From Bacilli bacterium (GTDB taxonomy: Bacteria > Bacillota_I > Bacilli_A > RF39 > UBA660): a stretch of DNA of 64,000 bases. How positions within the stretch are numbered: the stretch's first letter is position 1; each line of letters starts with the position of its first letter. Position numbers and translations under genes: made by a program. Under the pieces are notes generated by a model, which saw nothing but the letters and a program-made list of their open reading frames with translations, was not told where the DNA came from and ran no database searches. The DNA lies in NCBI GenBank assembly GCA_017938725.1, contig JAGBAW010000026.1:9014-73013 (forward strand), read 5' to 3'. Shown one piece after another: positions 217 through 60,787 of the stretch.

Positions 217-1102
217 AATTTTATTAAAAAATATTAGAGATGGTCTTAAAAATATAGTAAGAAATTTTAGTTTATCACTAGCATCCATATCATGTATAAC
301 CGTAACTCTTCTTATAGTGGCAGTTTCTATGATAGGTTCATATAACGTAGAAAATTTTACTAAAGTTATTAGAGATGACTTTACTATAGTGGTTTATATG
401 AATAATGATTTAGACGAGGATAAGGAATCAAAAATAAAGGATGAAATAGAAAAATTATCAAATATAGAATCAATAGAGTATAATTCTAAAAAAGAAATTG
501 CAGAAAATATGAAAAAAGAATCTGAGATATTTAATACAATAATATCATCATGGTCAGAGTCTGAAAATCCATTATATGATACATATTTGGTGAAGGTTAA
601 GGATTCTGAAAAAATATCAAATGCTGCGAAAAGAATAAAAAAAATAGATGGTGTTGTTATGGTTAAATATGGAGAGGGTATGATAGAGTCATTATTATCA
701 ATATTTAATATAATTGAGAAAATATTGATTATTACTGTTCTTTCACTTATAATAGTAACAGCCTTTCTAATAATAAATACCATAAAGATAACAATATTTT
801 CAAGACAAGAAGAAATAGAAATAAAAAGATTAGTAGGTGCATCTAATTTCTCAATTAAACAACCATTTGTAATAGAGGGATTATTTATAGGATTGATTGG
901 TTCAATTATTCCAGTAATATCAACAATATATGGATATTCAACATTATATGAGAAAACAGGCGGTGTATTATTTTCAAAATTCATAACATTAGTTAAACCA
1001 TTCCCATTTGTATTTATAGTATCATTTGTTTTAATTGTTATAGGTATTGTTGTTGGTATGATTGGTAGTAGTAGAGCAGTAAGGAAGTATTTAAAAATAT
1101 GA
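194..1102 (+). CDS. ftsX: Cell-division permease FtsX
   Basis: 4-TM permease with a large extracytoplasmic loop, encoded directly after ftsE. The ATG at 194 sits after a GAGAAAGGAA ribosome-binding site; the ORF track starts at TTG 179. Confidence 0.75.
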   Translation: MIKMKNIRILLKNIRDGLKNIVRNFSLSLASISCITVTLLIVAVSMIGSYNVENFTKVIRDDFTIVVYMNNDLDEDKESKIKDEIEKLSNIESIEYNSKKEIAENMKKESEIFNTIISSWSESENPLYDTYLVKVKDSEKISNAAKRIKKIDGVVMVKYGEGMIESLLSIFNIIEKILIITVLSLIIVTAFLIINTIKITIFSRQEEIEIKRLVGASNFSIKQPFVIEGLFIGLIGSIIPVISTIYGYSTLYEKTGGVLFSKFITLVKPFPFVFIVSFVLIVIGIVVGMIGSSRAVRKYLKI

Positions 1103-2677: not shown

Positions 2678-3020
2678 CTAGCCTATTTCCTTGAGCATCA
2701 GTATTAATACTACCTGTTAATATTAATATACCTTCTATTAATCCCCAAATAGCAGATACAAACGACAAAAGACCACAAGTTAGAACAGTAATTAATAATT
2801 GCCCAACAGCCTTACCAGTATATCCTAAATAAAAGTTATGTACCCCAAAAGCTCCTAGAAATATACCTAAAAGTCCAGCTGCAATTTTTGATTTAGGATT
2901 ATTAATATTATTTGTATTATTAACTACTTCGGTATTTTGACTAGTACCATTTCCACAATTACTGCAGAAAGTATCATCGTCTTTTAATTCAGTACCACAT
3001 TTTTGACAAAATTTAGCCAT
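2670..3020 (-). CDS. Zinc-ribbon plus TM2-domain membrane protein
   Basis: N-terminal CQKCG...CSNCG zinc ribbon and a C-terminal GVHNFYLGYTGKA TM2-type motif. Confidence 0.55.
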   Translation of the reverse strand: MAKFCQKCGTELKDDDTFCSNCGNGTSQNTEVVNNTNNINNPKSKIAAGLLGIFLGAFGVHNFYLGYTGKAVGQLLITVLTCGLLSFVSAIWGLIEGILILTGSINTDAQGNRLVD

Positions 3021-3242
3021 TTAAAACACCTCCATTAAAATAATAATAACATAAATTAAATATAAAATAAAGTATATTTTTTAAAAAATTATATGTTTGA
3101 ATATCATACAAAATTATTATAAATATAATAGGCCCAAAACCATAAAAATATAAAAAAGAGTTATTTTAACGCTAAATATATAAGTATAATTTACTTATTT
3201 TTTAAATTTTATGCTATAATATCTACTCAAAGAGGTAGTATA

Positions 3243-4049
3243 ATGATAAATTTGCAACATATTAAGGATATAATTCGTACCCTTTTTGAATTAGAAATCA
3301 TATTAGGTAAGTATAAAATAGGTGATGGTTCGGATATACTTAATTTTAAGGATTTGAAACTACTAAGTATTGAGGGACATGAATATATAGTATTTTTATA
3401 TAATAATAGAGTTATTAAAATTCATAGAAATCACCTACAAAGTATTTATGCATTAAATGAAGAAAATGTTTTATCACTAATAGGTATTCCCACAAAGAGA
3501 ATTCTAATGCCAACTGATCCATTATATAATTTAAATAAAAACATTGTTGGATATGTTATGGTGCCAGTATTTCAAACAGGGAAGAATATATATGAAGAAT
3601 CAATGGATAGCTTTTTAAATGAAATTAATATTATTTATTGTGATATGAATATATTGAATGAAGAATTGGTGTTATTAAAAGATATACATCCCGGTAATGC
3701 AATATTTAATGGTAAAATATATATAGTTGATTCTGGAAGATATGTAAATGCTAATGTATTACTTTCTCCATATATTGATTTAGATAATAAAAATATAAAA
3801 ATGGTCGTTAAAGATAATAATATTGATGAAATAAACAGCTTTCTATATAGGTATATTATGAATTGTATTTTAAGTAATTTAGGTAAATCAACCAAAATAT
3901 CATGCTTAATGAAAGTCAAAAAGTATTTTGAAACTAAGTCATCTGAAATGGGTACAACACGTTATATTGATATTGTAGAACATGAATGTAATAGAAATAT
4001 GACAGTAATAGAATATGCTAAGACTTTAAAAAATATCATTGATATATGA
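3243..4049 (+). CDS. Short protein-kinase-like fold protein, APH/CotS-like phosphotransferase family
   Basis: Catalytic-loop-like LKDIHPGNAI followed by IVDSG (a DFG-equivalent), and an upstream VIKIH lysine strand. Only 268 aa. Confidence 0.4.
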   Translation: MINLQHIKDIIRTLFELEIILGKYKIGDGSDILNFKDLKLLSIEGHEYIVFLYNNRVIKIHRNHLQSIYALNEENVLSLIGIPTKRILMPTDPLYNLNKNIVGYVMVPVFQTGKNIYEESMDSFLNEINIIYCDMNILNEELVLLKDIHPGNAIFNGKIYIVDSGRYVNANVLLSPYIDLDNKNIKMVVKDNNIDEINSFLYRYIMNCILSNLGKSTKISCLMKVKKYFETKSSEMGTTRYIDIVEHECNRNMTVIEYAKTLKNIIDI

Positions 4050-4169
4050 TAGTATGTTAGATAAAAAAAGGTAATTTTAATTGCCTTTTTAATGTAGCAA
4101 ATATATTTTATAAAAAGGTTATATTTCACTATGATATAGCATTGAATAACATAGGAGGAATATACCTAT

Positions 4170-4895
4170 ATGAACAAATATCAAAAAAAATATTACGAAA
4201 TTCAAAATGAAAGTATTAATAATTTAAAAAATATATCAAAGTTTGTTATGAAAGATTTAGAATTAATTACATCAACAAAATTTGTGATTGATAAACTAGA
4301 TGATATCAATAAAATTTTCTATTTATTAGGAACTAAATATGCTAGATATCTTTATCCCATTTTAGAAAAATATAATTATAATTATCATGCTGAATTACAA
4401 TATATAATTGCCAATTTATGTTATTATCCAGAAAATGAATTTGATAATTTTAAATCATTTAAATCATTGATATCAATAAATAGAATAGAAAATGGTTATC
4501 AACTTGAAACTCAATTTGGGGATGCAAGGGTATACATAGCAAATAGACTTATACCTGATTTATCGTATTATACAGTATATGGGGAAAGTCATCAGTGCTG
4601 TGAAAGCTTTATGTGTGATTACAAAAATGTAAGTGCAAGCACATGTCTAATCGATGATCCATTTTCAAAAAAACATTATCATTCTTTAATCAATAGCGAA
4701 GATAATATTATTGATTTATCGCATAATGCTTTTATGCACTTTGGTGATTATAATAAAATATTTGCTCCACAAATATTAAATACAGTATCAACGGAAGAAA
4801 TAATGGCTGAAGCTAAGAAAATTTATAGCAAAGAAAATCTAGGTAAAGATAAGGGATTATTACTTTGTTTAGCATTAGAAAAACAGATAAAGTAA
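4170..4895 (+). CDS. Hypothetical protein with an HQCCESFMCDY Cys/His cluster
   Basis: ORF of 241 aa with a GGAGGA ribosome-binding site. No family recognised. Confidence 0.45.
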   Translation: MNKYQKKYYEIQNESINNLKNISKFVMKDLELITSTKFVIDKLDDINKIFYLLGTKYARYLYPILEKYNYNYHAELQYIIANLCYYPENEFDNFKSFKSLISINRIENGYQLETQFGDARVYIANRLIPDLSYYTVYGESHQCCESFMCDYKNVSASTCLIDDPFSKKHYHSLINSEDNIIDLSHNAFMHFGDYNKIFAPQILNTVSTEEIMAEAKKIYSKENLGKDKGLLLCLALEKQIK

Positions 4896-4936
4896 ATATA
4901 AATGAAAAAATAATAGCAATAGAAGTAAATTTGTTC

Positions 4937-4965
4937 TTGACATATAATGTAGCACGTGCTAAAAT
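4937..4965 (+). promoter_or_regulatory. Sigma-A-type promoter TTGACA-N17-TAAAAT with an embedded palindromic operator TAGCACGTGCTA
   Basis: Exact TTGACA at 4937-4942 and TAAAAT at 4960-4965, with a 17-nt spacer. The perfect 12-bp palindrome at 4950-4961 overlaps the -10. The ribosome-binding site and ATG of ORF 4987 follow. Confidence 0.5.
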
Positions 4966-4986
4966 TAATGTTAAGGAGGTAATATT

Positions 4987-5478
4987 ATGAATATAATAAA
5001 TGATATCCGTGAGAAACAAAGTCAATTAATATTAATGATTAATTCAACATTTGATGATATTATAAGAAATATTGAGTCTATACAAGATGATGAAAGAAGA
5101 AATGTAAGGGAATATGCTAGTATATATCCAATAACAAACACATCAGGATTTAAGGGAAAAAAGCCTATTTCAGTAACATTTGGTAATGTAACTAAGACTA
5201 CACCAACATGGAAGTCAGTAGTTGAATTCATATTAAAAGAGGTATTAAATGATCCAGTAATGAAGGAGAGAATATCATCTTTATGTGATATAGTTCTAGG
5301 TCGCACACGTAAAAGATTATCTTCAAGTGATGAAAATATGCGTAGTCCATTAAAGCTAGATGAAAATTTATTTATTGAGACCCATTATGATACAGAAACT
5401 CTTATGAATCTATTACTTCAAATTTTAAATGGCATCTCATATGATTATAGCCAAATTAAAATTTCTATAAAAAATTAA
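4987..5478 (+). CDS. Hypothetical protein, 163 aa
   Basis: AAGGAGG ribosome-binding site and an ATG. No recognisable motifs. Confidence 0.5.
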   Translation: MNIINDIREKQSQLILMINSTFDDIIRNIESIQDDERRNVREYASIYPITNTSGFKGKKPISVTFGNVTKTTPTWKSVVEFILKEVLNDPVMKERISSLCDIVLGRTRKRLSSSDENMRSPLKLDENLFIETHYDTETLMNLLLQILNGISYDYSQIKISIKN

Positions 5479-5855
5479 CTTTTTTAAAAACAAATTATAG
5501 GATTTAATTCCGTTAAATAGAGCAGAATTAAAATTAACGAAGTAGAATATAATTGTTTTACCACGACATCCAATAATTGAAGGAATTATTTCAATGTGAT
5601 TGGAATGATTATATAAGATAAAGATAGTGTATCATATCGCTTTATAAAAGATGTTGACGTTTTAATTATCGTTATCTATTTTGGTGGAACAGGTCATAAA
5701 AAAAGTAATTATTCATAGGTAAGTATAAAAAATGTACTTACCTTGTTTTAATATTGTAAAAGGGTTATAATAATATATAAGTTTTGTGTTATTTAGTATT
5801 ATATAATATTGTTTATTTTTAAAGCATATAAAAGGTCACAAGAAAGGGGAAAATT

Positions 5856-7808
5856 ATGTTCAAATTAGTATCAAAATATAAACCATCTGGTGATCAGCCA
5901 GAAGCAATAGATGAGTTAGTTCAGGGCCTTAATAATGGAAAAAGAGATCAAGTTTTATTAGGTGCAACAGGAACTGGAAAAACTTTTACTATTGCAAATG
6001 TAATAGAGAGGGTTAATAAACCAACTTTAGTTTTAGCACACAATAAAACTCTAGCAGGACAACTCTATGCAGAGTTTAAAGAATTATTTCCAGAAAATAG
6101 AGTAGAATACTTTGTCTCATATTATGATTATTATCAACCTGAAGCCTATGTTCCATCTAGTGATACATTCATAGAAAAAGATGCATCGATTAATGACGAA
6201 ATAGACGAATTAAGACATAGTGCAACCTCTGCCCTTATCTCTAGAGATGATGTTATAGTAGTAGCATCTGTATCATGCATATATGGTCTTGGTGAGAAGG
6301 AAGAATATGAAAACAAAACACTATCTTTAAAGGTAGGAGATGTAATTGATAGAGATGAAATACTAAAAAAACTAGTTGATATGTTGTATGAAAGAAATAA
6401 TATGGATTTAGTTCGTGGTACATTTAGAACAAAGGGTGATACTATTGAAATAGTACCTGCATATTCTAGAACTAATGCATATAGAATTGATTTATTTGGT
6501 GATGAAGTAGAAAAATTAATTGAGTTTGATACTACTACAGGTGCAGTTATAAATCAAAAGCAAACAATAACTATATTTGCCGCCTCTCACTTTGTAACAA
6601 GTGACGATAAATTAAAACTTGCTGTTAAAAATATTAGGGAAGAATTAAATGATAGACTTAAATATTTTAAAGATAATAACAAATTATTAGAGCTACAGAG
6701 ATTAGAGCAAAGGACAAATTATGATTTAGAAATGCTTTCTGAAACAGGATTTTGTAAAGGAATAGAAAATTATAGTAGACATCTTGCATTTAAAAAATCA
6801 GGTGAAGCTCCTACTACACTTATTGACTTTTTTCCTAAAGACTTTCTACTTGTTATAGATGAATCTCATGTAACTCTTCCACAAGTTCGTGCGATGTATA
6901 ATGGTGATAGAATGAGAAAAACAACCCTTGTTGAGTATGGTTTTCGTCTTCCAAGTGCACTTGATAATAGACCATTAAAATTTGATGAATTTGAAAGAAA
7001 GATAAATCAGGTAATATATGTTTCAGCAACACCAGGAGATTATGAACTTGATAAAACTCATGGTGAAATAGTAGAGCAAATAATAAGACCAACAGGTCTT
7101 CTTGATCCAACAATTGAGGTTAAACCATCATTAAATCAAATAGATGATTTAATAGAGCAAATTCAAAATAGGATTTCTAAAAATGAAAGAACACTTGTTA
7201 CAACCCTTACAATAAGAATGAGTGAGGAGCTAACAAATTATTTAAAAAATGTAGATATAAAAGTGGCGTATCTTCATAATGAAATTAAAACTTTAGAAAG
7301 AATGGAAATAGTAAGAGATTTAAGATTAGGCAAATATGATGTTGTTGTTGGTGTTAATTTGCTTAGAGAAGGTATAGATATTCCAGAAGTATCTTTAATT
7401 GCAATATTGGATGCTGATAAGCAAGGCTTCCTTCGAAGTGAGCGAAGTTTAATTCAGACAATCGGAAGAGCGGCAAGAAACTCAAATGGGCATGTAATTA
7501 TGTATGCAGATTCTATTAGTGATGCCATGGATAAAGCTATTAAAGAAACACAAAGAAGAAGATGTATTCAAAGTAAATATAATGAAGAAAATAATATTAT
7601 TCCAAAAACAATTATAAAGGATATAAGAGATGTAATCAAAAATACAGACTCTAATAAGGATGAAAAAATAACAAAAACGTATAGCAAGAAAGAAAAACAA
7701 AAGATAATGGATAAAATAGAAAAAGAAATGATGGAAGCTGCTAAAGGATTAGATTTTGAAAGGGCAACCGAACTTAGAGACATCTTATTTGAAATGAAAA
7801 TGGAATAA
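5856..7808 (+). CDS. uvrB: Excinuclease ABC subunit B
   Basis: GATGTGKT P-loop, helicase motifs, and the C-terminal UVR domain [12 protein letters not shown]. Confidence 0.95.
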
Positions 7809-7818
7809 TATAAAAAAA

Positions 7819-8343
7819 TTAATTCTCATAAATTAATTTTTTTCTTTTGCTAATATTATAAAGTGAGTTTAAAATACCTTTTCCATTTTCTTTTTCATCT
7901 ATAATAGTATATTCAACATCATTGCCAAAGTCCTTAAATATCTCATTTAATAAATTATTATTAATATTACCATCTACATAATATAAATTTATAAAATTAC
8001 CTTGATTTTTTAGACTATCTACGTATTTAAATACTTCACTTTCCTTACAAAAATCACCTTCATATAATAAAGCTCCACCATTATTAATGTCTTTGTAATA
8101 AACATTACCTAAAAATTGGTTTCCTAGATATATATTTTTTTCCCTTATATAATCTAATATGTTTCTAAAAAAATATGTAAATATATTTTTATTTTCGGTT
8201 TCATCACAAAAACTAATTATTATTTTTTGATCACCTTCTATTTGTGCAATTTCATCTAATTTGTCTAATATTTTTTTAAATTCGTCCCCATCAATTTTCT
8301 CAAAAGTATTATAAATACTCGTAATGAAAAGTAATATTCTCAT
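7819..8343 (-). CDS. Hypothetical protein
   Basis: Starts MRILLFITS after an AGGGGA ribosome-binding site; the ORF track gives a longer form from 8361. No family recognised. Confidence 0.4.
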   Translation of the reverse strand: MRILLFITSIYNTFEKIDGDEFKKILDKLDEIAQIEGDQKIIISFCDETENKNIFTYFFRNILDYIREKNIYLGNQFLGNVYYKDINNGGALLYEGDFCKESEVFKYVDSLKNQGNFINLYYVDGNINNNLLNEIFKDFGNDVEYTIIDEKENGKGILNSLYNISKRKKLIYEN

Positions 8344-8513
8344 AAACATTCCCCTATTCATAATATAGTATTCAAAAACAAAAATAATGACAATTTATAA
8401 ATTAATATGCAAATTATATTAATGAATATAAAGTGTAAAATTTATAGTAATATTATTTATTAATTCAATTTATTTATGTATAATTTATATTAATAGGGTA
8501 GGTGAATTAATAT

Positions 8514-13501: not shown

Positions 13502-16500
13502 ATGGGTAATAAATTAAAAAAATTAAATAGTTTGCTTTTATTTATGTTCTTAATGTTTCTTTCTACTACAATAGCATATGCAGGATTATCCACGAAACTT
13601 GCGATAACAGCAGAAGCTAAGTTTAGACCAGTAGCAGATATAAGAGTGACAGGTATTAGTTTATCAAGTGTTACTGGTTCCGCAAGGTTACAATATGAAC
13701 CTGAGTATAATGTTAACTCCACAACTACGGGTTTTATACTTCCTGATACTAGTTCAACAATAACATATAAAGTAACTGTTGCTAATAATGGAACTATTGA
13801 TCAAACTATATATAATATGATAACAGCAAGTACAAATAATAATAATGTTTCATATACAATATCAGGTTATAATTTAAAAGATCCTATTCCTTTTAAAAGT
13901 AGTGTAACTTTTTATATAACATTTAAAACAACTTCAGGAAGTAATACTACAATAAATTATAAAATAAACTATGATTTTAGAAAATTATATAAAGTAGAAT
14001 ATGATTCAAATGGTGGAGAAAATGTTCCTGAAAATCAAATGAAATATGAAAATGTTGATTTAACTATTACGAGTGATATACCAACAAAAGAAGGATATAA
14101 ATTTAAAGGATGGAGTGATTCTAAAACAGATGGCACAATAAAATATACACCAGAGAGCAATTACACATTAGATAAGGATATTCTTTTATATGCAGTATGG
14201 GAAATAAATACGTATAAATTAGATTTAAGTTATAATGTAGATGGTACCTGGTATTATGAAGGTTATAATAACAGAATACTTACAGGAATAAAAGTAGATG
14301 GGATAGATAAAGGTTATCTAAATGATTTTGATTTAAATGTCGGATACGGAAAAGAATATGAAATATATGGATTCAAATTAGATGGCGTTAACATACCTTA
14401 TTCAAAAAAATACATAGTAGATGGCACAAATCATTTAAATATATCATTTTATACTATTAATTTTGTTGTTAATAATAACGAGTATGGTGAAGTTGATACT
14501 CAAAATTTAATAGTGTTACCTGGTACAACATTTGAGCCTTTAGCAAGTACATTAACATTATCTGATTCTAGAAAAGTAAAGGCATCATTAAAGAACTTAG
14601 AAGGATATACAACAGAATTTTCAAATTTTACATATAATCCTAATAGTACAACTATAAATTCAAAAACAACAATAACTGCAAATTTTACAAGGAAAATTAA
14701 TCAATATACATTGACTGTTAAACCAAATGGTGGTACATGGGATAATAGCACAAATGACAAGACATTTAAACAAAATTATAATACCACTAGAAAAATCTTA
14801 GTACCAAGCAGTAATGCCTATTATTCAATTAGTTATGATGCAAATGGTGGTACAATATTATCATCAGGTAATATAACGGCGAGTAGAGATTTTACAGGAT
14901 GGTCATTGACTGGTAAGGGAAGTATAACAAAAACTGAACCTCTTTCCTCATCTTTTCAAACATATACTTATGGTGCAAGTGACGATGTATTAACAGCAAA
15001 TTATAATAGTACTGCAAATACTATAACAACAGCAACAGTAAGAAGAAGTCATACAATAACATATAATGCAAATAATACAGGTGCATCGATAGGAAAACTA
15101 AGTGAAAAAATATCAGATGTAATGAATGGTTGGTATACAAAGGCTAGTGGTGGAGAAAAAAGAGCAGAAAATGGAGGAAAATATGCCCCAACAGCAAGTG
15201 AAAAATTATATGCACAGTGGACAAAGGGAACAGTAACACTTCCAACAATAAAAAAGACAGGTTATACATGTTCATTTAATACAAAGGCTGATGGAACAGG
15301 AACAAGTTATGAATCAGGTTCATCAGGTTATTCAATAGACTCTGATACAACTTTATATGGTATTTGTGAAGCAAGTAGTTATAAAATAACTTGGGATAGA
15401 AATTATTTAGATTCAAGTTTATGGACAGATACACATTTAACAAATAGATATAGTTCGTCAGGCACGGCTCCTACAGCTAAAACAACAATAACTGATAATA
15501 CTGTAAAATATGGACAATATATAGAATTTACAATGCCTACAGGAACAAGTAGAGGTCCATATTATCTTAATTCAACTTATTTAACAGCTGGAAGTACATA
15601 CACATGGAGTGTATACGTAAAGGCAAGCTCAGCAAAAACATTGATTATTGGACAAGAACAGGGAGGAACGCAAACTGTAAATGTAACTACGAGTTGGCAA
15701 AAATTAACATATACATTTACGGCAAAAGAATATCAATATAAAGGATTTATATTCTATCTTACATCTGGATCTACATGGAGTGAAGGCGATAAATTATATG
15801 TACATTCATTAGAAATAATGGAAGGAACACCAACCAATACAACATCTACAAAAACATATGGAGCAACATTAGGAACGCTTCCTACACCAGATTCAAGAAT
15901 TGGTTATACATTTAATGGGTGGTTTACATCTGCAACAGGTGGTACTAAAATAAACAGCTCAACAGTTGTAAAAAGTGACTCAACATATTATGCAAAATGG
16001 ACACCTAATACATATGCAATATCGTTAGATAATCAGGACGTAACGACAACAGGTACACAAACAATTTTTGAAAAATACGAAACAGGTATATATTTAGATG
16101 AAAATTTAACACAAGTAATGACTACAAGTACTAATTCAATAAGAAAACCAATAAAAAATGGATATACATTTAAAGGGTATTATACTGGTAAAGATGGTAC
16201 TGGCATTCAAATGATAGATGAAAATGGATATATTACTGGTAATTTAACAAATAATAAATACACATCTAATACAACTTTATATGCATATTGGAAAATTAAT
16301 AAAGTAAATATACAATATGATATGAACGGTGGAAGACTTGGAACTATAAATAATAATGATATATCTACTTCCGGTTCATTGATTACATATCAAGGTACAA
16401 CAATAATACATGCTCTAGATTATGGATCTAAGTTAGGAGAATATGGCCTTTATGATTATAATAATCCAGGATTTATCAACTTGGTTAGAACTGGATATTA

Positions 16501-19294
16501 TATAAATTCAAATTATGTATGGAATAAAAACCCAGATGGTACAGGTAGGTCGTATAATCAGGTTACTCAATATTCTGCAAGTGATTTTTGTGATGCAAGC
16601 TATGGTGATTGTACAATGACTTTATACGCTAATTGGTATCCAAATGCATTAATATTTGATAATCAAACAAAAGATATAACACGTAGTACAAATGCCCAAA
16701 CAATAGAAATAACAGGTGCAAGTAATGGGACAGGAAATTATATATATAGTGAGATATCAGAGAAGAATTCAAGTAATACTGCTACAAATTACATAAGTAT
16801 ATCAGGAACAACAATAACAGTCGCAGCAAATATACCAGCAGATACATATAAATATGTAATAAGAGCAACAGATAGTAATTCAAATGTTACAAAGGATGCA
16901 ACCATTACAATTAAAGTAAATAAGTTAGATAATCCAATTGTTGTAACAGCAACTGATTCAGAATATACTGGTTCTTCACAGCCTCTAGTATCAGTTAAAA
17001 ATGCTCAAGGGAATGTATATTATAGTACTAGTACACAGTTAACAAGTTCAAATTATACAAGTGGTAGTACAACTATTCCAAGTGCTACTAATGGTGGAAC
17101 ATATACAGTTTACTATTATGTTACAGGCAATGATAATTATAATTCTAAATCTGGAAGTGTTGAATCTACAATATCTTATTTAACATATGAAATTAGACTA
17201 GATAATAAGGATGCAACAACACCAGGAACTTCTGTTATATATGGTAGATATGGCGATGGAATATATTTGGATAGTAATTATACAAAACATATGACTTTAA
17301 ATTCAAATCCGATAACAATACCTAAAAGAGAATATAATTTAACCTTAAATTACAATGACGAGTATTCGACAACAAGTGATAACTTAAAAGTAGATTATAC
17401 CTTCCTTGGATATATTAATACTGAAGCATTAGTCACGTACATAGATGGTAATGGATACTTACAAACTATGAATGAGTTTAATGGATTAGATGTTCATAGT
17501 AATGAAGCATTACAAACAGCAACTGTTGAATGGGAATATAATGGAGTAACACTTCCAACAGAAGTAGCAAGATTAGATTATACTTTCCTTGGATGGTATA
17601 CTAATGCGATTGGAGGAACTAAGGTAACTAACTCTACAGAAATTACTGAGGATACTACAATTTATGCTCATTGGATACAAAATCCAGCAATAACTGGTGG
17701 TAGTGATGATTGGACTAATACTTCAAGAACAATATCTGTAGAAGAAAATGGTAGATATGTTACAGATGTCGAAATTACAAAATATCAATATTATAAGTCA
17801 ACAAGTTCTATGTCACTTGTAGGTGGTACTTGGACAGATTGTACTACATCATCTACATCTCAAACATTTACTGATGAGGGAGAATATTATATATTCTTTA
17901 GGTCTGTATCATCACAAGGGTATAGTAATCCATCAAACTCTCAAATTGTAAGAATTGACAAAACAGCGCCAGGAGCTACATCATCAAAAATTAGATACGA
18001 GTCATCAACAGGAAAAGAAGCGCAAAATGATACATGGACAAATAGAACATTATGGTGGGGTGATTTTACCGCAAACGATACATTATCCGGTATAAATCAT
18101 TATGAATATTCAGATGGTTGTACAGGAACTAAGAGCGGAAATTTAGAATCATATACATCTGAAGACGACAAGGTACGTGCATTTTGTATAAGAGCAGTTG
18201 ATAATGCAGGTAACGCTGGAGCTTGGTCAGAACCTTATGTCTTTAAGGTAGATAAAACACCACCAGAAATTGCTCAATCAAAAATTAGATATGATTCATC
18301 AACAGGAGCAGAAAGAACTAATGCCAATACATGGACAAACAAAACGTTATGGTGGGGTGATTTCTTCGCATGGGATAATTATCCTACAGCTGAGAATTAT
18401 GGTGCTGCATCCGGTATAAATCATTATGAATATTCAACTAATTGTACAGGTGAGAAAACCGGTAACCTATCATCAGAATATACATATGATACACAAATTA
18501 ACTGGACTTTCTGTATAAGGGCAGTTGATAATGCAGGTAACGCTGGAGCTTGGTCAGACCCTTATTACTTTAAGATAGATAAAACATCACCAAAAATTCT
18601 TGGTACAATCAAGTATACTACTAAATCATGCTCCTGGTCAGGAAGTTGTACTGTAGCAAATCAAAGTGAGTCTATACTAAATGCAAATACTACTATAAAT
18701 GGATGGAATTCTTTTGATTATGCCGTTGATTGGACAGAAACTATTGATGAAGGTGGTTCAGGTATAAAATCCGTTACATGGTCAATTAATGATGAAGGAG
18801 CTTCCTCATTAACATCGGATACTAAAAAACTTGTTACCGTGGTTAATAAGGGAACAACACCATCTAATTGGACGCAAAACATTTCAACCGCAGGTGCTAG
18901 ATATGCAGAAATCAAGGTTGAGGATAATGCTGGTAATATAAGAAAAGTGTATATTACTACTTATGTCGATAAAGTTAACCCAAAAATAACACTAAAAGCG
19001 TATAAAACTAATACAACGACCCAAGTTAGTTCTGGCACTACATCTGATAAATATCTTTCATTTATTGCTACTACAACTCAGATAGGATTAGGTGGCGGTA
19101 CAATTAAATACTGTGGTTCAAGAACAAGAGGATGCACTCCTAATCTTACTACAACAAGTGGAGCAAGGATTAATAGATGGTATAATGGTGATAATGCTCA
19201 TACTACAGGAACATGGTATGTAAATGCCTGCATAATGGGGAATAATGGAACTATATATTGTGTACCTGAGTTTACAGCAAAGGTAAGCCCTTAG
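13502..19294 (+). CDS. Giant secreted multidomain surface protein with Listeria-Bacteroides (Flg_new) repeats and an MBG-like domain
   Basis: Signal peptide. Repeated GY(T/K)FxGW...GGTK...TLYAxW modules. No LPXTG motif and no C-terminal TM. A TTGACT-N17-TATACT promoter lies at 13428-13456. Confidence 0.8.
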   Translation: MGNKLKKLNSLLLFMFLMFLSTTIAYAGLSTKLAITAEAKFRPVADIRVTGISLSSVTGSARLQYEPEYNVNSTTTGFILPDTSSTITYKVTVANNGTIDQTIYNMITASTNNNNVSYTISGYNLKDPIPFKSSVTFYITFKTTSGSNTTINYKINYDFRKLYKVEYDSNGGENVPENQMKYENVDLTITSDIPTKEGYKFKGWSDSKTDGTIKYTPESNYTLDKDILLYAVWEINTYKLDLSYNVDGTWYYEGYNNRILTGIKVDGIDKGYLNDFDLNVGYGKEYEIYGFKLDGVNIPYSKKYIVDGTNHLNISFYTINFVVNNNEYGEVDTQNLIVLPGTTFEPLASTLTLSDSRKVKASLKNLEGYTTEFSNFTYNPNSTTINSKTTITANFTRKINQYTLTVKPNGGTWDNSTNDKTFKQNYNTTRKILVPSSNAYYSISYDANGGTILSSGNITASRDFTGWSLTGKGSITKTEPLSSSFQTYTYGASDDVLTANYNSTANTITTATVRRSHTITYNANNTGASIGKLSEKISDVMNGWYTKASGGEKRAENGGKYAPTASEKLYAQWTKGTVTLPTIKKTGYTCSFNTKADGTGTSYESGSSGYSIDSDTTLYGICEASSYKITWDRNYLDSSLWTDTHLTNRYSSSGTAPTAKTTITDNTVKYGQYIEFTMPTGTSRGPYYLNSTYLTAGSTYTWSVYVKASSAKTLIIGQEQGGTQTVNVTTSWQKLTYTFTAKEYQYKGFIFYLTSGSTWSEGDKLYVHSLEIMEGTPTNTTSTKTYGATLGTLPTPDSRIGYTFNGWFTSATGGTKINSSTVVKSDSTYYAKWTPNTYAISLDNQDVTTTGTQTIFEKYETGIYLDENLTQVMTTSTNSIRKPIKNGYTFKGYYTGKDGTGIQMIDENGYITGNLTNNKYTSNTTLYAYWKINKVNIQYDMNGGRLGTINNNDISTSGSLITYQGTTIIHALDYGSKLGEYGLYDYNNPGFINLVRTGYYINSNYVWNKNPDGTGRSYNQVTQYSASDFCDASYGDCTMTLYANWYPNALIFDNQTKDITRSTNAQTIEITGASNGTGNYIYSEISEKNSSNTATNYISISGTTITVAANIPADTYKYVIRATDSNSNVTKDATITIKVNKLDNPIVVTATDSEYTGSSQPLVSVKNAQGNVYYSTSTQLTSSNYTSGSTTIPSATNGGTYTVYYYVTGNDNYNSKSGSVESTISYLTYEIRLDNKDATTPGTSVIYGRYGDGIYLDSNYTKHMTLNSNPITIPKREYNLTLNYNDEYSTTSDNLKVDYTFLGYINTEALVTYIDGNGYLQTMNEFNGLDVHSNEALQTATVEWEYNGVTLPTEVARLDYTFLGWYTNAIGGTKVTNSTEITEDTTIYAHWIQNPAITGGSDDWTNTSRTISVEENGRYVTDVEITKYQYYKSTSSMSLVGGTWTDCTTSSTSQTFTDEGEYYIFFRSVSSQGYSNPSNSQIVRIDKTAPGATSSKIRYESSTGKEAQNDTWTNRTLWWGDFTANDTLSGINHYEYSDGCTGTKSGNLESYTSEDDKVRAFCIRAVDNAGNAGAWSEPYVFKVDKTPPEIAQSKIRYDSSTGAERTNANTWTNKTLWWGDFFAWDNYPTAENYGAASGINHYEYSTNCTGEKTGNLSSEYTYDTQINWTFCIRAVDNAGNAGAWSDPYYFKIDKTSPKILGTIKYTTKSCSWSGSCTVANQSESILNANTTINGWNSFDYAVDWTETIDEGGSGIKSVTWSINDEGASSLTSDTKKLVTVVNKGTTPSNWTQNISTAGARYAEIKVEDNAGNIRKVYITTYVDKVNPKITLKAYKTNTTTQVSSGTTSDKYLSFIATTTQIGLGGGTIKYCGSRTRGCTPNLTTTSGARINRWYNGDNAHTTGTWYVNACIMGNNGTIYCVPEFTAKVSP
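17957..18577 (+). repeat. In-frame tandem duplication of about 300 and 330 nt inside the giant gene
   Basis: Two units start with gataaaaca/gacaaaaca. Identical stretches such as agggcagttgataatgcaggtaacgctggagcttggtcaga occur twice. A third unit starts at 18578. Confidence 0.6.
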
Positions 19295-49898: not shown

Positions 49899-52800
49899 AT
49901 GAATAAGATAAAAGAATTTATTTTAAAATATAAAATTATTTTATTAATAGTTTTATTAGTAATAGCCTCTTTTGGTATATACTTCTTTGCTTCTGCGGAA
50001 GAGGATATATATGCGAATCAAATAGAGGTTACTAATGCTATTAGTAAAATAGTAGATGGCACGCCAAATGAAGATGGTAGTTTTGACCCTAATGATGATG
50101 CAGGTAATGATTCATCAAATAGTAATAAGATAGTTAGAAATTTTGATTCAATTACCTATGATGTATCATATAATCTCAGGTATAAAGAAAGTACTAACTT
50201 GAGCGCAGAAGATCAAAAATTGGATAACATTAGAAATGCTATAATTGATGTACTACTTCCTACATCTATAAGTGCAAATGTTTCTTATGGTGGGAATTCT
50301 GATATAAATCAGGGCCCAAGTAGTGCTAAAGAGGTTACTATAAATGGTATTAATTATAATTATTATATGTTTGAAATTAATGGTATAGATATCTCCTCAC
50401 CAAGGACAAGTAGTATTGTAGTATCAAATATTAATTCAAAAAATAATACTAAAATAGAACCTATTATAAGAGTAAGGGAAAGTACAGATCAATCAGCTGT
50501 TGCAATAGATAATAATACGGATATAAATAATATATCAAAATTAAATGTTGAACCTGTTATTGTATCTGCCAAAGAAAATTATGGCATTAAATTATATCCA
50601 GGGGTTCTAAAAAAGGATTATGATAACGCTACTATTCCTGTTGGTGTTGTTATTTATTTACCAAAGGATCCAAACAAGGGAATTAGAGGAATCGAGGTTC
50701 CAAGTAGTGTAGAATTTAATATGACTATAAATGATACAACAAATAGTTCTTCTATTATCGGTACTCCTACAATTAGTAATTACGATAGTAGCTTATATAC
50801 AATAGATGGACTTCCATCAGCTGATGCTACTAATAATGGTAATGCTGGAATTATAGTAAATGGCAATACATTCACATTAAACTTTACGGAATTAAAGTTC
50901 AGCAATAATGCTGTTTCAATAAATGATGTTGATGTTAACTATTTATCATCAAAGATGGTGCTATTTAATGTTCAAAGGACAACACCAAAAGCAAATATAA
51001 CCTATTCAATAGGTGCAACAAATGGTGTAATAACAAGTAATAATATAGAAATGAATTATAATTATGATCCTTATATTGGTGATTATAAAACAAAAGTTGA
51101 GTTTGTTAATAAAAATGGCTCAATACCAAATCCAGGGGAGGCAACATATTACTTTAATGAAGAATTTGATATAAAAAATACAATTCAATATGGATTTAAT
51201 GGAACTTACTCAGGTGATAATCTTAATGGCTTTGTAAATTATTTAAAAATAGATGAAGATGCAATTGAACTATTAGAGTCTGATAATATTAGTGATGAAA
51301 CAAAGGATTATATAGTTAAGTTCTCTGGTACAGATAGTCCAACTAAGGATAACTATTCAGTTAAGTATGGTGTTGGAAAGTGGGATTCATCATATTTTGA
51401 AATTAGTGGTACATGCCATATATCAAGTAAAGAGGATTTAATGAATTATTATGGTAGTTCATGCGTAAATGATAAAAATATTGTATGGTATGATACTATC
51501 GAAGAAGCAAAGAAAAATGGAAGTATAATACTTATACAATTTGATTATTCTGGTGATTTTTCCGCAGGAACTAGTGCTACATTAACTTTTAAAGCAAGGG
51601 CAAAAAATAATAGTTCAAACGTGGGGAGCACATTTGCTGTAATATCAAAAGGTATTACTACTTGGAATGATAATACATATTATTTATCTGAAACGCCAAT
51701 GCCTTTACTTGATTCTAGTACAGGGGACACAAGTATGTACTACAAAAAGACAGAATATGATGCTAATCACAATATTATAGCGAACACTAATAATCCATCG
51801 GGTAGTTATGGTAATACATTACTAGTTTCTGCATTTAAAGTTGGTTTTGATAGTATTATTACTAAAAATAGTTATGATAGTGAAAAAAGTACAATATATT
51901 CTGGACTAGATGATCCAGTTGAAATAATTTTAACGCCTACACTTTCAACTTATGTGGGGAATAAGATCGAGTCTGTTTCTATAAATGTTGTTTTACCACA
52001 AGGATTAGAATTATATATTAAAAAGGGAGATAAGATTCCTACTATTGATAATGCTGCTCCATCATATAAGACTCTTATGTATAGTTTCACAAGTGATGAA
52101 ATTGCAAAAAATAATGGTAAAATACCAAATCTCATACTTCATGCATATATATCGGTAGGGACTCCTGATAATACAATAGCGGATATAACGGCCGCAATAG
52201 ATGCAGTGGTTAGTAATGGTGATAAAAAATATTCTTCAATTACGTCAATAGATAAAAGAACAATAGGTGCAAGATTAACTTTAAGAAATACAAATAAGAT
52301 TAATGCACTTGGCACAATTAATCAAACTTATATTGATAAAAATGGAGAATTTACATATAAAATGAGGGCATCAAATTTATCAAGTGATGCAGCAACATTA
52401 GAATTATTAAATATACTACCATATTCAGGTGATAGTATTGGGGATGGTTCCAAATTTTCTGGTACATTGTCAGTAGCAATACAAGATGTTTTACCTGAAG
52501 GATATAAGATATATTATACTAGTGATGCGGCAAAGACAATACTTAAAAATGAAATTGATTCATCAGAGATAAAATGGATTGAATGGTCTGATTATAATAC
52601 ATATCGTAAAGATATAACAGCAATAAAAATAGTGTCAACATCACAGATCGCCTCTGGAGGATATTTTGTAAATGATACTGGTTTAACATTAAAAATAAAA
52701 ACTGATGGGAACAAAGAAACTGATATTTATTATAATAATTTCTATATATTAGAAAGAAATGCAAAATTATGTGAAGATGGTTCATCAGATTTACAAACAC

Positions 52801-53861
52801 AGGGCGTAGAATGCGATCCAAATTTAAAAGGAACACTTATATACCCATCTAATACTTCAAATGTATCTGTTTATAATAGAACTATTTCAGGAAAAGTATT
52901 TGAAGATGAAGATTACAATGGATTATATGAAGATGAAAAAAAGCTAAGTAATCAAATAGTTGAACTATATAGGTTAAACAAAGAGGGAGAATTTGACCCT
53001 AATAATCCATTAGATGTAATTAGTGATGCAGATGAAAAAGTATCCAAATCAGATGTAACAACAGATAATAATGGGACATATTTATTTAATTCATTATCAT
53101 CGGGTAGTTATTATGTAAAAGTAACATTTGATTGTGACAAATATTCCGTTACAGATAAAAATAAAACAACAATAGATACCTTAGTTGATACTTCTTCAAT
53201 AGATTCAGACTTTATTGCTATACCTACTGAAAATTCTAATACATGTAGCGCAGTATCAAATATTATTACTTTAAATAATGATAATATAAATGCAAGAAAT
53301 ATTGATTTAGGCTTGAGAATAAAACAAAACTTCGATATAAAAATAAGTAAATATATTACAAACGTTACAATAAACTCTAATAGAGGGACACAATCAATTG
53401 ACTATGATAAGCAAACTAAGGTAAAAATTGACGTAAAAAATCTAAAAAATACGTCATTTAGGGTAACATATAATTTTGAAATAGAAAATACTAAGTATTT
53501 TCCTGGAACTATTGGTACTATAATGGAATCTATACCTGAGGGTATGACATTTGATCCTTCACTTTCAGAAAATGACGGATGGTATGAAACATCAAATGGT
53601 ACATTATATTATGAATATTTATCAAATACATTAATAATGCCTGGAGAAAAATATCATATAAAGATAGTATTAGATCTAGTAACAGATGAAGGTGGAGATT
53701 TTGTAAATATTGTATTGGCTGATGATTTAAGAGTAATGGGATCAGCATCAGATATTATTACTGATACAGAAATTGAAATACTTCCAGATGGAGAAACTGA
53801 AAACCCGGGTGAAGATTCAAATGGAGATACAAATGAAGATGAAGAAGGTGATTTTGAATGA
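49899..53861 (+). CDS. Giant membrane-anchored/secreted surface protein with an SdrD-B/CnaB-type domain
   Basis: N-terminal TM/signal. SGKVFEDEDYNG...NNGTYLFNSLSSGSYYVKV CnaB-like fold. Acidic C-terminus and no sorting signal. Its stop overlaps the next start (ATGA). Confidence 0.7.
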   Translation: MNKIKEFILKYKIILLIVLLVIASFGIYFFASAEEDIYANQIEVTNAISKIVDGTPNEDGSFDPNDDAGNDSSNSNKIVRNFDSITYDVSYNLRYKESTNLSAEDQKLDNIRNAIIDVLLPTSISANVSYGGNSDINQGPSSAKEVTINGINYNYYMFEINGIDISSPRTSSIVVSNINSKNNTKIEPIIRVRESTDQSAVAIDNNTDINNISKLNVEPVIVSAKENYGIKLYPGVLKKDYDNATIPVGVVIYLPKDPNKGIRGIEVPSSVEFNMTINDTTNSSSIIGTPTISNYDSSLYTIDGLPSADATNNGNAGIIVNGNTFTLNFTELKFSNNAVSINDVDVNYLSSKMVLFNVQRTTPKANITYSIGATNGVITSNNIEMNYNYDPYIGDYKTKVEFVNKNGSIPNPGEATYYFNEEFDIKNTIQYGFNGTYSGDNLNGFVNYLKIDEDAIELLESDNISDETKDYIVKFSGTDSPTKDNYSVKYGVGKWDSSYFEISGTCHISSKEDLMNYYGSSCVNDKNIVWYDTIEEAKKNGSIILIQFDYSGDFSAGTSATLTFKARAKNNSSNVGSTFAVISKGITTWNDNTYYLSETPMPLLDSSTGDTSMYYKKTEYDANHNIIANTNNPSGSYGNTLLVSAFKVGFDSIITKNSYDSEKSTIYSGLDDPVEIILTPTLSTYVGNKIESVSINVVLPQGLELYIKKGDKIPTIDNAAPSYKTLMYSFTSDEIAKNNGKIPNLILHAYISVGTPDNTIADITAAIDAVVSNGDKKYSSITSIDKRTIGARLTLRNTNKINALGTINQTYIDKNGEFTYKMRASNLSSDAATLELLNILPYSGDSIGDGSKFSGTLSVAIQDVLPEGYKIYYTSDAAKTILKNEIDSSEIKWIEWSDYNTYRKDITAIKIVSTSQIASGGYFVNDTGLTLKIKTDGNKETDIYYNNFYILERNAKLCEDGSSDLQTQGVECDPNLKGTLIYPSNTSNVSVYNRTISGKVFEDEDYNGLYEDEKKLSNQIVELYRLNKEGEFDPNNPLDVISDADEKVSKSDVTTDNNGTYLFNSLSSGSYYVKVTFDCDKYSVTDKNKTTIDTLVDTSSIDSDFIAIPTENSNTCSAVSNIITLNNDNINARNIDLGLRIKQNFDIKISKYITNVTINSNRGTQSIDYDKQTKVKIDVKNLKNTSFRVTYNFEIENTKYFPGTIGTIMESIPEGMTFDPSLSENDGWYETSNGTLYYEYLSNTLIMPGEKYHIKIVLDLVTDEGGDFVNIVLADDLRVMGSASDIITDTEIEILPDGETENPGEDSNGDTNEDEEGDFE

Positions 53862-60710: not shown

Positions 60711-60787
60711 GGCGGAATTGGTGAAGTGGTTAACACGGCAGATTGTGGCTCTGTTATGCAAGGGTTCGACTCCCTTATTTCGCCCCA
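60711..60787 (+). tRNA. tRNA-His (anticodon GUG)
   Basis: Hand-folded. G-1 and 7-bp acceptor GCGGAAT/ATTTCGC, discriminator C. D-arm GGTG..CAC. Anticodon stem GCAGA/TCTGT with loop TTGTGGC (GTG). T-arm AAGGG-TTCGACT-CCCTT. Encoded CCA. Confidence 0.85.

Follow-up and report, generated by a model that had tools for sequence, protein, structure and literature searches.

Bacterial repressors that control their own genes, among them LexA, TetR-type repressors and antitoxin autorepressors, classically act from an operator that lies over the -10 hexamer or over position +1 of the promoter. Other described palindromic sites include parS, with its 16-base-pair (bp) consensus TGTTNCACGTGNAACA, and CIRCE, which reads TTAGCACTC-N9-GAGTGCTAA and stands upstream of chaperone genes. 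Here, we analyze a stretch of 64,000 nucleotides (nt; hereafter the window) from a Bacilli bacterium (GTDB lineage Bacteria; Bacillota_I; Bacilli_A; RF39; UBA660; GenBank assembly GCA_017938725.1, contig JAGBAW010000026.1, positions 9,014 to 73,013 of the forward strand), in which a gene for a protein of 163 amino acids (aa) is preceded by a strong sigma-A promoter with a palindrome built into it. We consider it probable, at roughly 70%, that this protein is a dimeric autorepressor of its own promoter. As in classical autorepressors, the palindrome lies over the core promoter or the start site of the protein's own strong promoter, and its symmetry implies a dimer; unlike in those systems, the predicted domain is SeqA-like and alpha/beta, rather than helix-turn-helix, ribbon-helix-helix or AbrB-type, and we see no sign of a ligand, a partner gene or a regulon. 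SeqA of Escherichia coli and Vibrio (PF03925 plus PF17206), whose C-terminal fold is the closest that we found, is not a classical transcription factor (PMC2691817); it targets hemimethylated GATC, which its residues R116, T117, R118, N150 and N152 contact (PMC6225831), with N150 and N152 forming a DNA-binding loop (PMC2691817).

Around the promoter, the window reads, in order, tttgttc-TTGACA-tataatgtagcacgtgc-TAAAAT-taatgtt-AAGGAGG-taatatt-ATG, from which we assigned the following elements (the class A promoters are defined below):

4900-4936, plus strand: A/T-rich sequence 5' of the -35 hexamer, a possible UP element judging from its sequence
4937-4942, plus strand: -35 hexamer TTGACA, whose distance from the palindrome is constant across 24 class A promoters
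4943-4959, plus strand: spacer of 17 nt
4949-4962, no strand assigned: candidate operator, the family 14-mer GTAGCACGTGCTAA, conserved in 57 distinct homologous promoters
4950-4961: perfect 12-bp palindrome TAGCACGTGCTA, overlapping the first two bases of the -10 hexamer
4952-4959: operator core GCAC/GTGC, with the palindrome centre at 4955/4956
4957-4965, plus strand: extended -10 from a consensus scan, with TG at 4957-4958, then C, then TAAAAT at 4960-4965
4972 (+/- 1-2 nt), plus strand: predicted transcription start, at the usual 7 nt after the -10 hexamer
4973-4979, plus strand: Shine-Dalgarno sequence AAGGAGG, 7 nt 5' of the ATG and kept in homologues
4987-5478 (stop included), plus strand: coding sequence of 163 aa, proposed autorepressor of an unannotated family, from the list of open reading frames (ORFs) and the homologues

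The first-pass annotation of this DNA had placed here a near-consensus promoter, TTGACA-17-TAAAAT, with a 12-bp palindrome running across spacer and -10, and both placements proved accurate. Both hexamers are close to the sigma-A consensus at a spacing of 17 bp, and in a consensus scan the promoter scored 11/12 with an additional TG; it ranked first among the sigma-70-type matches in 3000-8000, and no other on the plus strand of that interval bore a TG. A start near 4972 would give a leader of about 15 nt, and the operator centre lies about 17 nt 5' of this predicted start. We write the operator core as GCACGTGC. Within the window by itself, the palindrome does not stand out significantly: where about 49 perfect 12-bp palindromes are expected, 60 occur, and of those with six or more G/C there are 4 where about 1 is expected. 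CACGTG is indeed present only once, as had been pointed out, yet this carries no weight, since shuffled sequences average 1.0 copies. The significance of the palindrome comes instead from its conservation in homologous promoters.

A word-indexed search returned 160 homologues of 163-167 aa, none with a Pfam domain, and the exact window protein is recorded from a 'Bacilli bacterium' metagenome-assembled genome. We fetched 36 loci from species-representative genomes and 54 from metagenomes, whose upstream regions amount to 57 distinct promoters of two geometries. In class A (n=24, including the window), an A-tract is followed by TTGACA, about 7 variable nt and (T/G)TAGCACGTGCTAA, whose right arm contains the start of the -10, and a -10-like hexamer is kept at the matching position. 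In class B, the promoter, TTGACA-17-TAnAnT, lies about 23 bp farther upstream, and the same core spans approximately +1 to +14; the hosts are Oscillospiraceae (including the cultured Hominicoprocola fusiformis CLA-AA-H269, locus L031), Family XIII, Defluviitaleaceae and termite-gut clades at 34-44% identity. The A-tract (aaaaaggta) directly precedes TTGACA in homologous promoters, and in both classes the palindrome centre lies 29-32 nt from the ATG. The arms of the operator vary symmetrically (TTAG...CTAA versus TGCG...CGCA), and in two class B loci, L069 and L079, the core is the centre of perfect palindromes of 40 and 42 bp. Thus, a symmetric site overlapping the footprint of RNA polymerase is conserved across the 57 orthologous promoters, and the promoter-plus-operator reading of the first-pass annotation holds up in the orthologues, where both hexamers, their 17-nt spacing and the palindrome are kept while the bases between them drift; loss of the palindrome from orthologous promoters, which that annotation had named as the outcome that would speak against it, was not what we found. 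Because class B keeps the palindrome sequence even though the promoter has moved upstream, the palindrome itself, and not the -10, is the conserved functional unit. In both geometries, a protein bound to it would block RNA polymerase.

The operator is linked to the gene. In the fetched loci, 540 kb in all, we counted 62 copies of GCACGTGC, and 61 of these lie within 60 nt 5' of a family gene, the sole exception sitting in a coding region. The window holds no second strong operator site, with GCAYRTGC found twice, which is the chance level. The site accompanies the gene through unrelated neighbourhoods and across Firmicutes orders, and no conserved partner gene or neighbouring regulator, no fixed gene order and no shared operon was found across the loci. 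Since 61 of 62 copies stand at the gene while the neighbours vary, and the window lacks a second convincing site, gene and operator travel together as a self-contained module.

Several loci carry further features near the gene. An operator near-copy with one mismatch, TTAGCACCTGCTAA, lies 264 nt 5' of the ATG within the upstream ORF at L015 (5737-5750) and L014 (3824-3837), which could be an auxiliary looping site or chance. Decayed copies of the family gene occur at L035 (about 6001-6282), L080 and L081 (both 3001-3279) and L028 (324-830); the first three are 5'-truncated remnants without promoter or palindrome, and L028 has in-frame stops. As such decayed copies exist, the gene is evidently dispensable in some genomes. 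A spoIIID-like gene is the neighbour, on either side, in about 10 of 37 loci, while yabG, veg, htpG and insertion sequence transposases appear sporadically nearby; the adjacency of spoIIID, yabG and veg is too inconsistent for a sporulation role. The spoIIID-like helix-turn-helix gene (79-94 aa) is located at L002 2993-3232, L003 5565-5825, L004 1986-2270 and L009 6596-6868, and likewise in L005, L006, L008, L012, L013 and L016. Four of these genes have the canonical SpoIIID C-terminus swapped for a mutually conserved tail (...TLKNGKxNGQVIPESIEIKKVFLAEKNPxVxLGLxIK), which may mark a variant SpoIIID or an interrupted gene.

The 163-aa protein itself had been described as lacking recognizable motifs. 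This stands insofar as it has no match in Pfam, PHROGs or PADLOC, an NCBIfam match only to the SepA family and weakly (18.2 bits), and nothing above noise in a PDB sequence search (for example, SAMHD1 at E 0.02), yet its predicted fold is SeqA-like and its family numbers at least 453 clusters. An AlphaFold 2 (AF2) model built from a 30-sequence alignment (predicted local distance difference test score 86.5, predicted template modelling score 0.69), together with the homologue alignment, gave these features:

4993-5115, plus strand: long N-terminal alpha-helix, residues 3-43, with heptad-like hydrophobic spacing (AF2 model)
5116-5475, plus strand: C-terminal alpha/beta domain, residues 44-163, with a SeqA-C-like fold (AF2 model and fold search)
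5299-5310, plus strand: G105-R106-T107-R108 (GRTR), R106 nearly invariant, aligned with SeqA G115-R116-T117-R118 in a non-significant alignment
5377-5400, plus strand: E131-T-H133-Y-D135-T-E-T138, the invariant ETHYD followed by the proposed specificity residue T138 (codon 5398-5400)

Invariant across the homologue alignment are G105, R108, R110, E131, H133, Y134, D135 and T136. The top Foldseek match was 3fmt_A (probability 0.99, root-mean-square deviation 2.4 Å over 90 columns), and the SeqA C-terminal fold was the best match in the PDB by two methods. The SLED domain of Scml2 (PDB 2mem) scored much more weakly and is a eukaryotic Polycomb-group domain without sequence relationship. We propose the N-terminal helix as the dimerization element, as the twofold symmetry of the operator would imply a dimer.

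The comparison with SeqA reveals both common and divergent traits. Besides the C-terminal fold, the family has a GR(T)R segment and a T-x-x-x-T loop followed by a helix, which may correspond, in this order, to SeqA R116/T117/R118 and N150/N152; in a greedy hhalign alignment, not significant at a probability of 0.3%, the family GR(T)R falls on SeqA G115-R118 and I-E-T-H-Y-D-T on V-I-T-N150-T-N152-T, so that the ETHYDTET segment is paired with I148-T-N150-T-N152-T-G-R155. Unlike SeqA, the family has a single long helix at its N-terminus in place of SeqA_N (PF17206 gave no match), carries the invariant H133 and D135 where SeqA has the methyl-adenine readers N150 and N152, is hosted by Firmicutes and not Gammaproteobacteria, and has as its proposed target a 14-bp palindrome without GATC in its own promoter rather than hemimethylated GATC. 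The likeness is therefore best described as a shared predicted fold with a suggestive correspondence of motifs, not as demonstrated homology. Literature searches for 'SeqA-like' or 'SeqA fold' returned nothing on Firmicutes, those for TAGCACGTGCTA only papers on eukaryotic E-boxes, and those for GCACGTGC with operator and repressor nothing relevant.

We found residue 138 to covary with the centre of the operator. Three loci, L013, L017 and L027, have the core CATATG, and all three encode Met at 138 (DTEML, DTKML and DTSML), whereas the other 48 distinct proteins have T, S or A at this position and the core CACGTG (n=46) or CATGTG (n=2). Upon choosing further Met138 proteins from the protein lists and then fetching their contigs, we obtained TGCGCATATG(C/T)TAA at the expected position for P0050, P0062, P0083 and P0109 (P0098 and P0290, chosen likewise, are taken up below), and the copy with in-frame stops in L028 likewise combines DTVML with CATATG. 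In a neighbor-joining tree, the Met/CATATG sequences form two robust groups plus L027; they were monophyletic in 3 of 500 bootstraps, and in 0 of 500 once columns 136-139 were left out. Hence, judged from these sequences, the two central base pairs of the operator appear to have changed repeatedly alongside residue 138, which lies three positions after the residue aligned with SeqA N152 in the non-significant alignment. A Met side chain set against the thymine methyl would be a chemically sensible basis for this pairing. Such covariation would be expected if the protein reads its own operator, and it is hard to explain by another factor or by structure alone. For the relatives with N or K at H133 (P0242, P0305 and P0314), the upstream sequence is missing, or the gene lies inside an operon without a promoter of its own.

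Beside the directly observed anatomy of promoter and operator, their conservation, the linkage of operator and gene, the fold similarity and the covariation of residue and bases, we infer binding, dimerization, the negative sign of regulation and the start site, and propose the following mechanism. The N-terminal helix probably forms a coiled-coil dimer, whose two C-terminal domains would bind the twofold-symmetric operator (T/G)TAGCAC/GTGCTAA, with the GRxR segment and the ETHYDTET loop facing the DNA and residue 138 reading the base pairs at the centre. Bound protein would, in class A, to which the window promoter belongs, lie over the spacer and the extended -10 and so exclude RNA polymerase, while in class B it would cover the start site. 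Whenever the protein is scarce, the near-consensus promoter would fire, which would keep the protein at a constant level under tight homeostatic control.

A number of observations weigh against this autorepressor model. The Pfam SeqA model (PF03925) had no match at E<=10 in 30 members, and hhalign runs against SeqA of E. coli and against an alignment of SeqA sequences gave a probability of 0.3%, which is not significant (the SeqA homologue search yielded only sequences of at least 82% identity, poor material for a profile); the residue correspondences to SeqA that we draw come from this non-significant alignment. The geometry is demanding as well, as SeqA occupies one site per monomer, while here the half-site centres are about 7 bp apart and two domains of about 120 aa would have to fit one palindrome. 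As to the covariation, P0098 has CATATG at another distance from its ATG, with 44 nt of upstream sequence known, and the distant Met protein P0290 (DVTML) retains CACGTG; moreover, the deep branches of the neighbor-joining tree are weak, which makes the number of independent T-to-M events, two or three, uncertain. Finally, the scan for sites covered the fetched loci and the window, and other copies may exist.

This last point also favours a different repressor, encoded elsewhere and acting in trans, for which the 163-aa protein would be one regulated cargo of a wider regulon, much as the first-pass annotation had envisaged in calling for a separate repressor and a genome-wide regulon. The geometry of the palindrome would suit any repressor, the half-site TTAGCAC resembles the arms of CIRCE, and the core matches that of parS; yet the 9-bp spacer of CIRCE is absent, the flanks differ from parS at 3 of 8 half-site positions, and no conserved regulator neighbours the gene. 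A foreign factor sits poorly with a site that stays with the gene whatever the neighbouring genes are and is all but missing from the remainder of both the 540 kb of loci and the window, and it would not explain why core and residue covary in separate lineages. Linkage and covariation point to the product repressing its own promoter, and we regard a trans-acting repressor as unlikely. Still more doubtful, and in our view very improbable, is the notion that the palindrome merely forms a nucleic-acid structure, such as a 5' stem-loop or a cruciform, or is only part of the promoter. The extended -10 of the window promoter does take its TGn from the right arm, and class B transcripts would carry the core as a GC-rich hairpin at their 5' end, with palindromes that extend to 40-42 bp and reach the Shine-Dalgarno sequence. 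However, the class A palindrome lies 5' of the predicted start and hence would not be transcribed, the left arm is conserved without having a promoter role, the class B core is unchanged with the -10 elsewhere, 4500-6000 contains no Rfam match, and the change of the core from CG to TA together with T138 to Met would be left unexplained by structure alone.

The protein might also bind its site for activation or for segregation, replication control or recombination, with repression as a side effect. The closest fold belongs to SeqA, which is not a classical transcription factor (PMC2691817), and the mobile-looking operons, the methyltransferase fusion and the tandem domains of distant relatives described below are in keeping with such a role. 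Where the site covers the spacer and -10, or +1 to +14, of a promoter already near consensus, there is nevertheless no room for activation. The sole conserved site seen lies in the protein's own promoter, at a fixed distance from the ATG, and we find this alternative distinctly unlikely. A more far-reaching idea, and one that we offer as a long shot, is that the family is the Firmicute counterpart of SeqA in function too, with binding here and elsewhere that depends on methylation or replication state, and that the SepA family comprises DNA binders of mobile elements; if true, the site in the protein's own promoter would act as a switch that is epigenetic or coupled to replication. When the 64-kb window was scanned for DNA methyltransferases with a motif regex, none emerged, the only hit being an RsmD-like ORF with a DPPY-type motif.

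Known operators and regulators were tried as candidates and rejected. A parS/ParB site has only the CACGTG core in common with the palindrome, as this core is flanked in all homologues by TAG/CTA or GCG/CGC and not by TGTTN...NAACA. The arms TTAGCAC/GTGCTAA are like those of the CIRCE/HrcA operator, but they abut without the 9-bp spacer and precede a gene that does not encode a chaperone. Unlike parS and CIRCE, the site stands at one promoter, that of a gene unrelated to partitioning. Activation of the MerR type is ruled out by the 17-bp promoter spacing.

A hidden Markov model search of 1.84 billion representatives returned 453 clusters, which sets the family size at no fewer than 453 clusters at 50% identity; most members are stand-alone proteins of 160-200 aa. 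In P0243, P0245, P0255 and P0270, the C-terminal domain occurs in tandem, which would amount to a built-in 'dimer' suited to a target of two half-sites. In P0312 (555 aa, L093 5001-6668), an N6 DNA methyltransferase is fused to a C-terminal family domain, and one member is fused to DUF3846. The gene for P0312 adjoins GIY-YIG and DUF3800 genes, in a setting that resembles a defence or mobile island. As distant members occur in operons with DUF4314/DUF6809 or Amidoligase_2, a link of these members to mobile elements is suggested.

NCBIfam model NF047386, 'T4SS effector SepA family' (T4SS, type IV secretion system), matched 29 of 30 members weakly (best E 7e-6, residues 16-104), at about 18 bits against a curated cut-off of 110 bits, which leaves the proteins outside that family as curated. 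Brucella abortus SepA (BAB1_1492) is a protein of 130 aa without known domain, from a horizontally acquired region (PMC4602199). The window protein is likewise small and without known domain; unlike SepA, it matches through its N-terminal half alone, has no T4SS context and is proposed to bind DNA, while the function reported for SepA is secretion into host cells. The match is a hint that the DNA-binding fold proposed here may extend to SepA-type proteins.

A phage origin was considered and set aside, as IMG/VR yielded no relatives among viral contigs. More than 120 viral contigs contain the 14-mer, which is about chance by a rough, uncomputed estimate, and just 3 of 120 have TTGAC upstream of it. 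L174 (palindrome at 273-286, minus strand) and L188, a pair of related GC-rich contigs from IMG/VR, carry CTTGACA-N6-TTTAGCACGTGCTAAAGT 5' of unrelated small ORFs, with the same promoter-palindrome geometry in a different background.

Within the window, the 163-aa gene and two ORFs fill the stretch between cell-division genes (ftsX and the M23 peptidase gene) and uvrB:

179-1102: ftsX (Pfam/NCBIfam)
1099-2283: M23 peptidase (Pfam/NCBIfam)
Between the M23 peptidase gene and the 163-aa gene, minus strand: DUF2752 and TM2 genes
3243-4049 and 4170-4895: two ORFs of 268 and 241 aa, with no match in Pfam/NCBIfam and none of weight in PHROGs/PADLOC
5856-7808: uvrB (Pfam/NCBIfam)

The 163-aa gene appears to be monocistronic. 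It is followed by a non-coding gap of about 380 bp (5479-5855) before uvrB, which has no Rfam match and contains a terminator-like hairpin at 5717-5743, 240 nt past the stop of the 163-aa gene. What comes after uvrB is an oppositely oriented ORF of 180 aa and unknown function (7819-8361), and not uvrA. The window has 26% G+C, with 40.7% A versus 32.9% T on the plus strand, and nearly all ORFs of at least 150 aa lie on that strand, consistent with a single replichore arm. It also contains one tRNA (60712-60784) and large ORFs of 1930 aa (13502-19294) and 1320 aa (49899-53861).

Taken as proposed, autorepression would provide a testable function and a defined DNA target for a widespread unannotated family that has no Pfam model and is common in Firmicutes of human, animal and termite guts. 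It would extend the SeqA-type fold beyond Gammaproteobacteria and hemimethylated GATC to the sequence-specific recognition of a palindrome, for which the natural pairs T138/CACGTG and M138/CATATG constitute a ready system to study a recognition code. The compact cassette of near-consensus promoter, 14-bp operator and repressor could serve as a genetic tool in low-GC anaerobes. Furthermore, the weak link to SepA, together with the methyltransferase and DUF3846 fusions, suggests that related proteins of mobile elements act on DNA.
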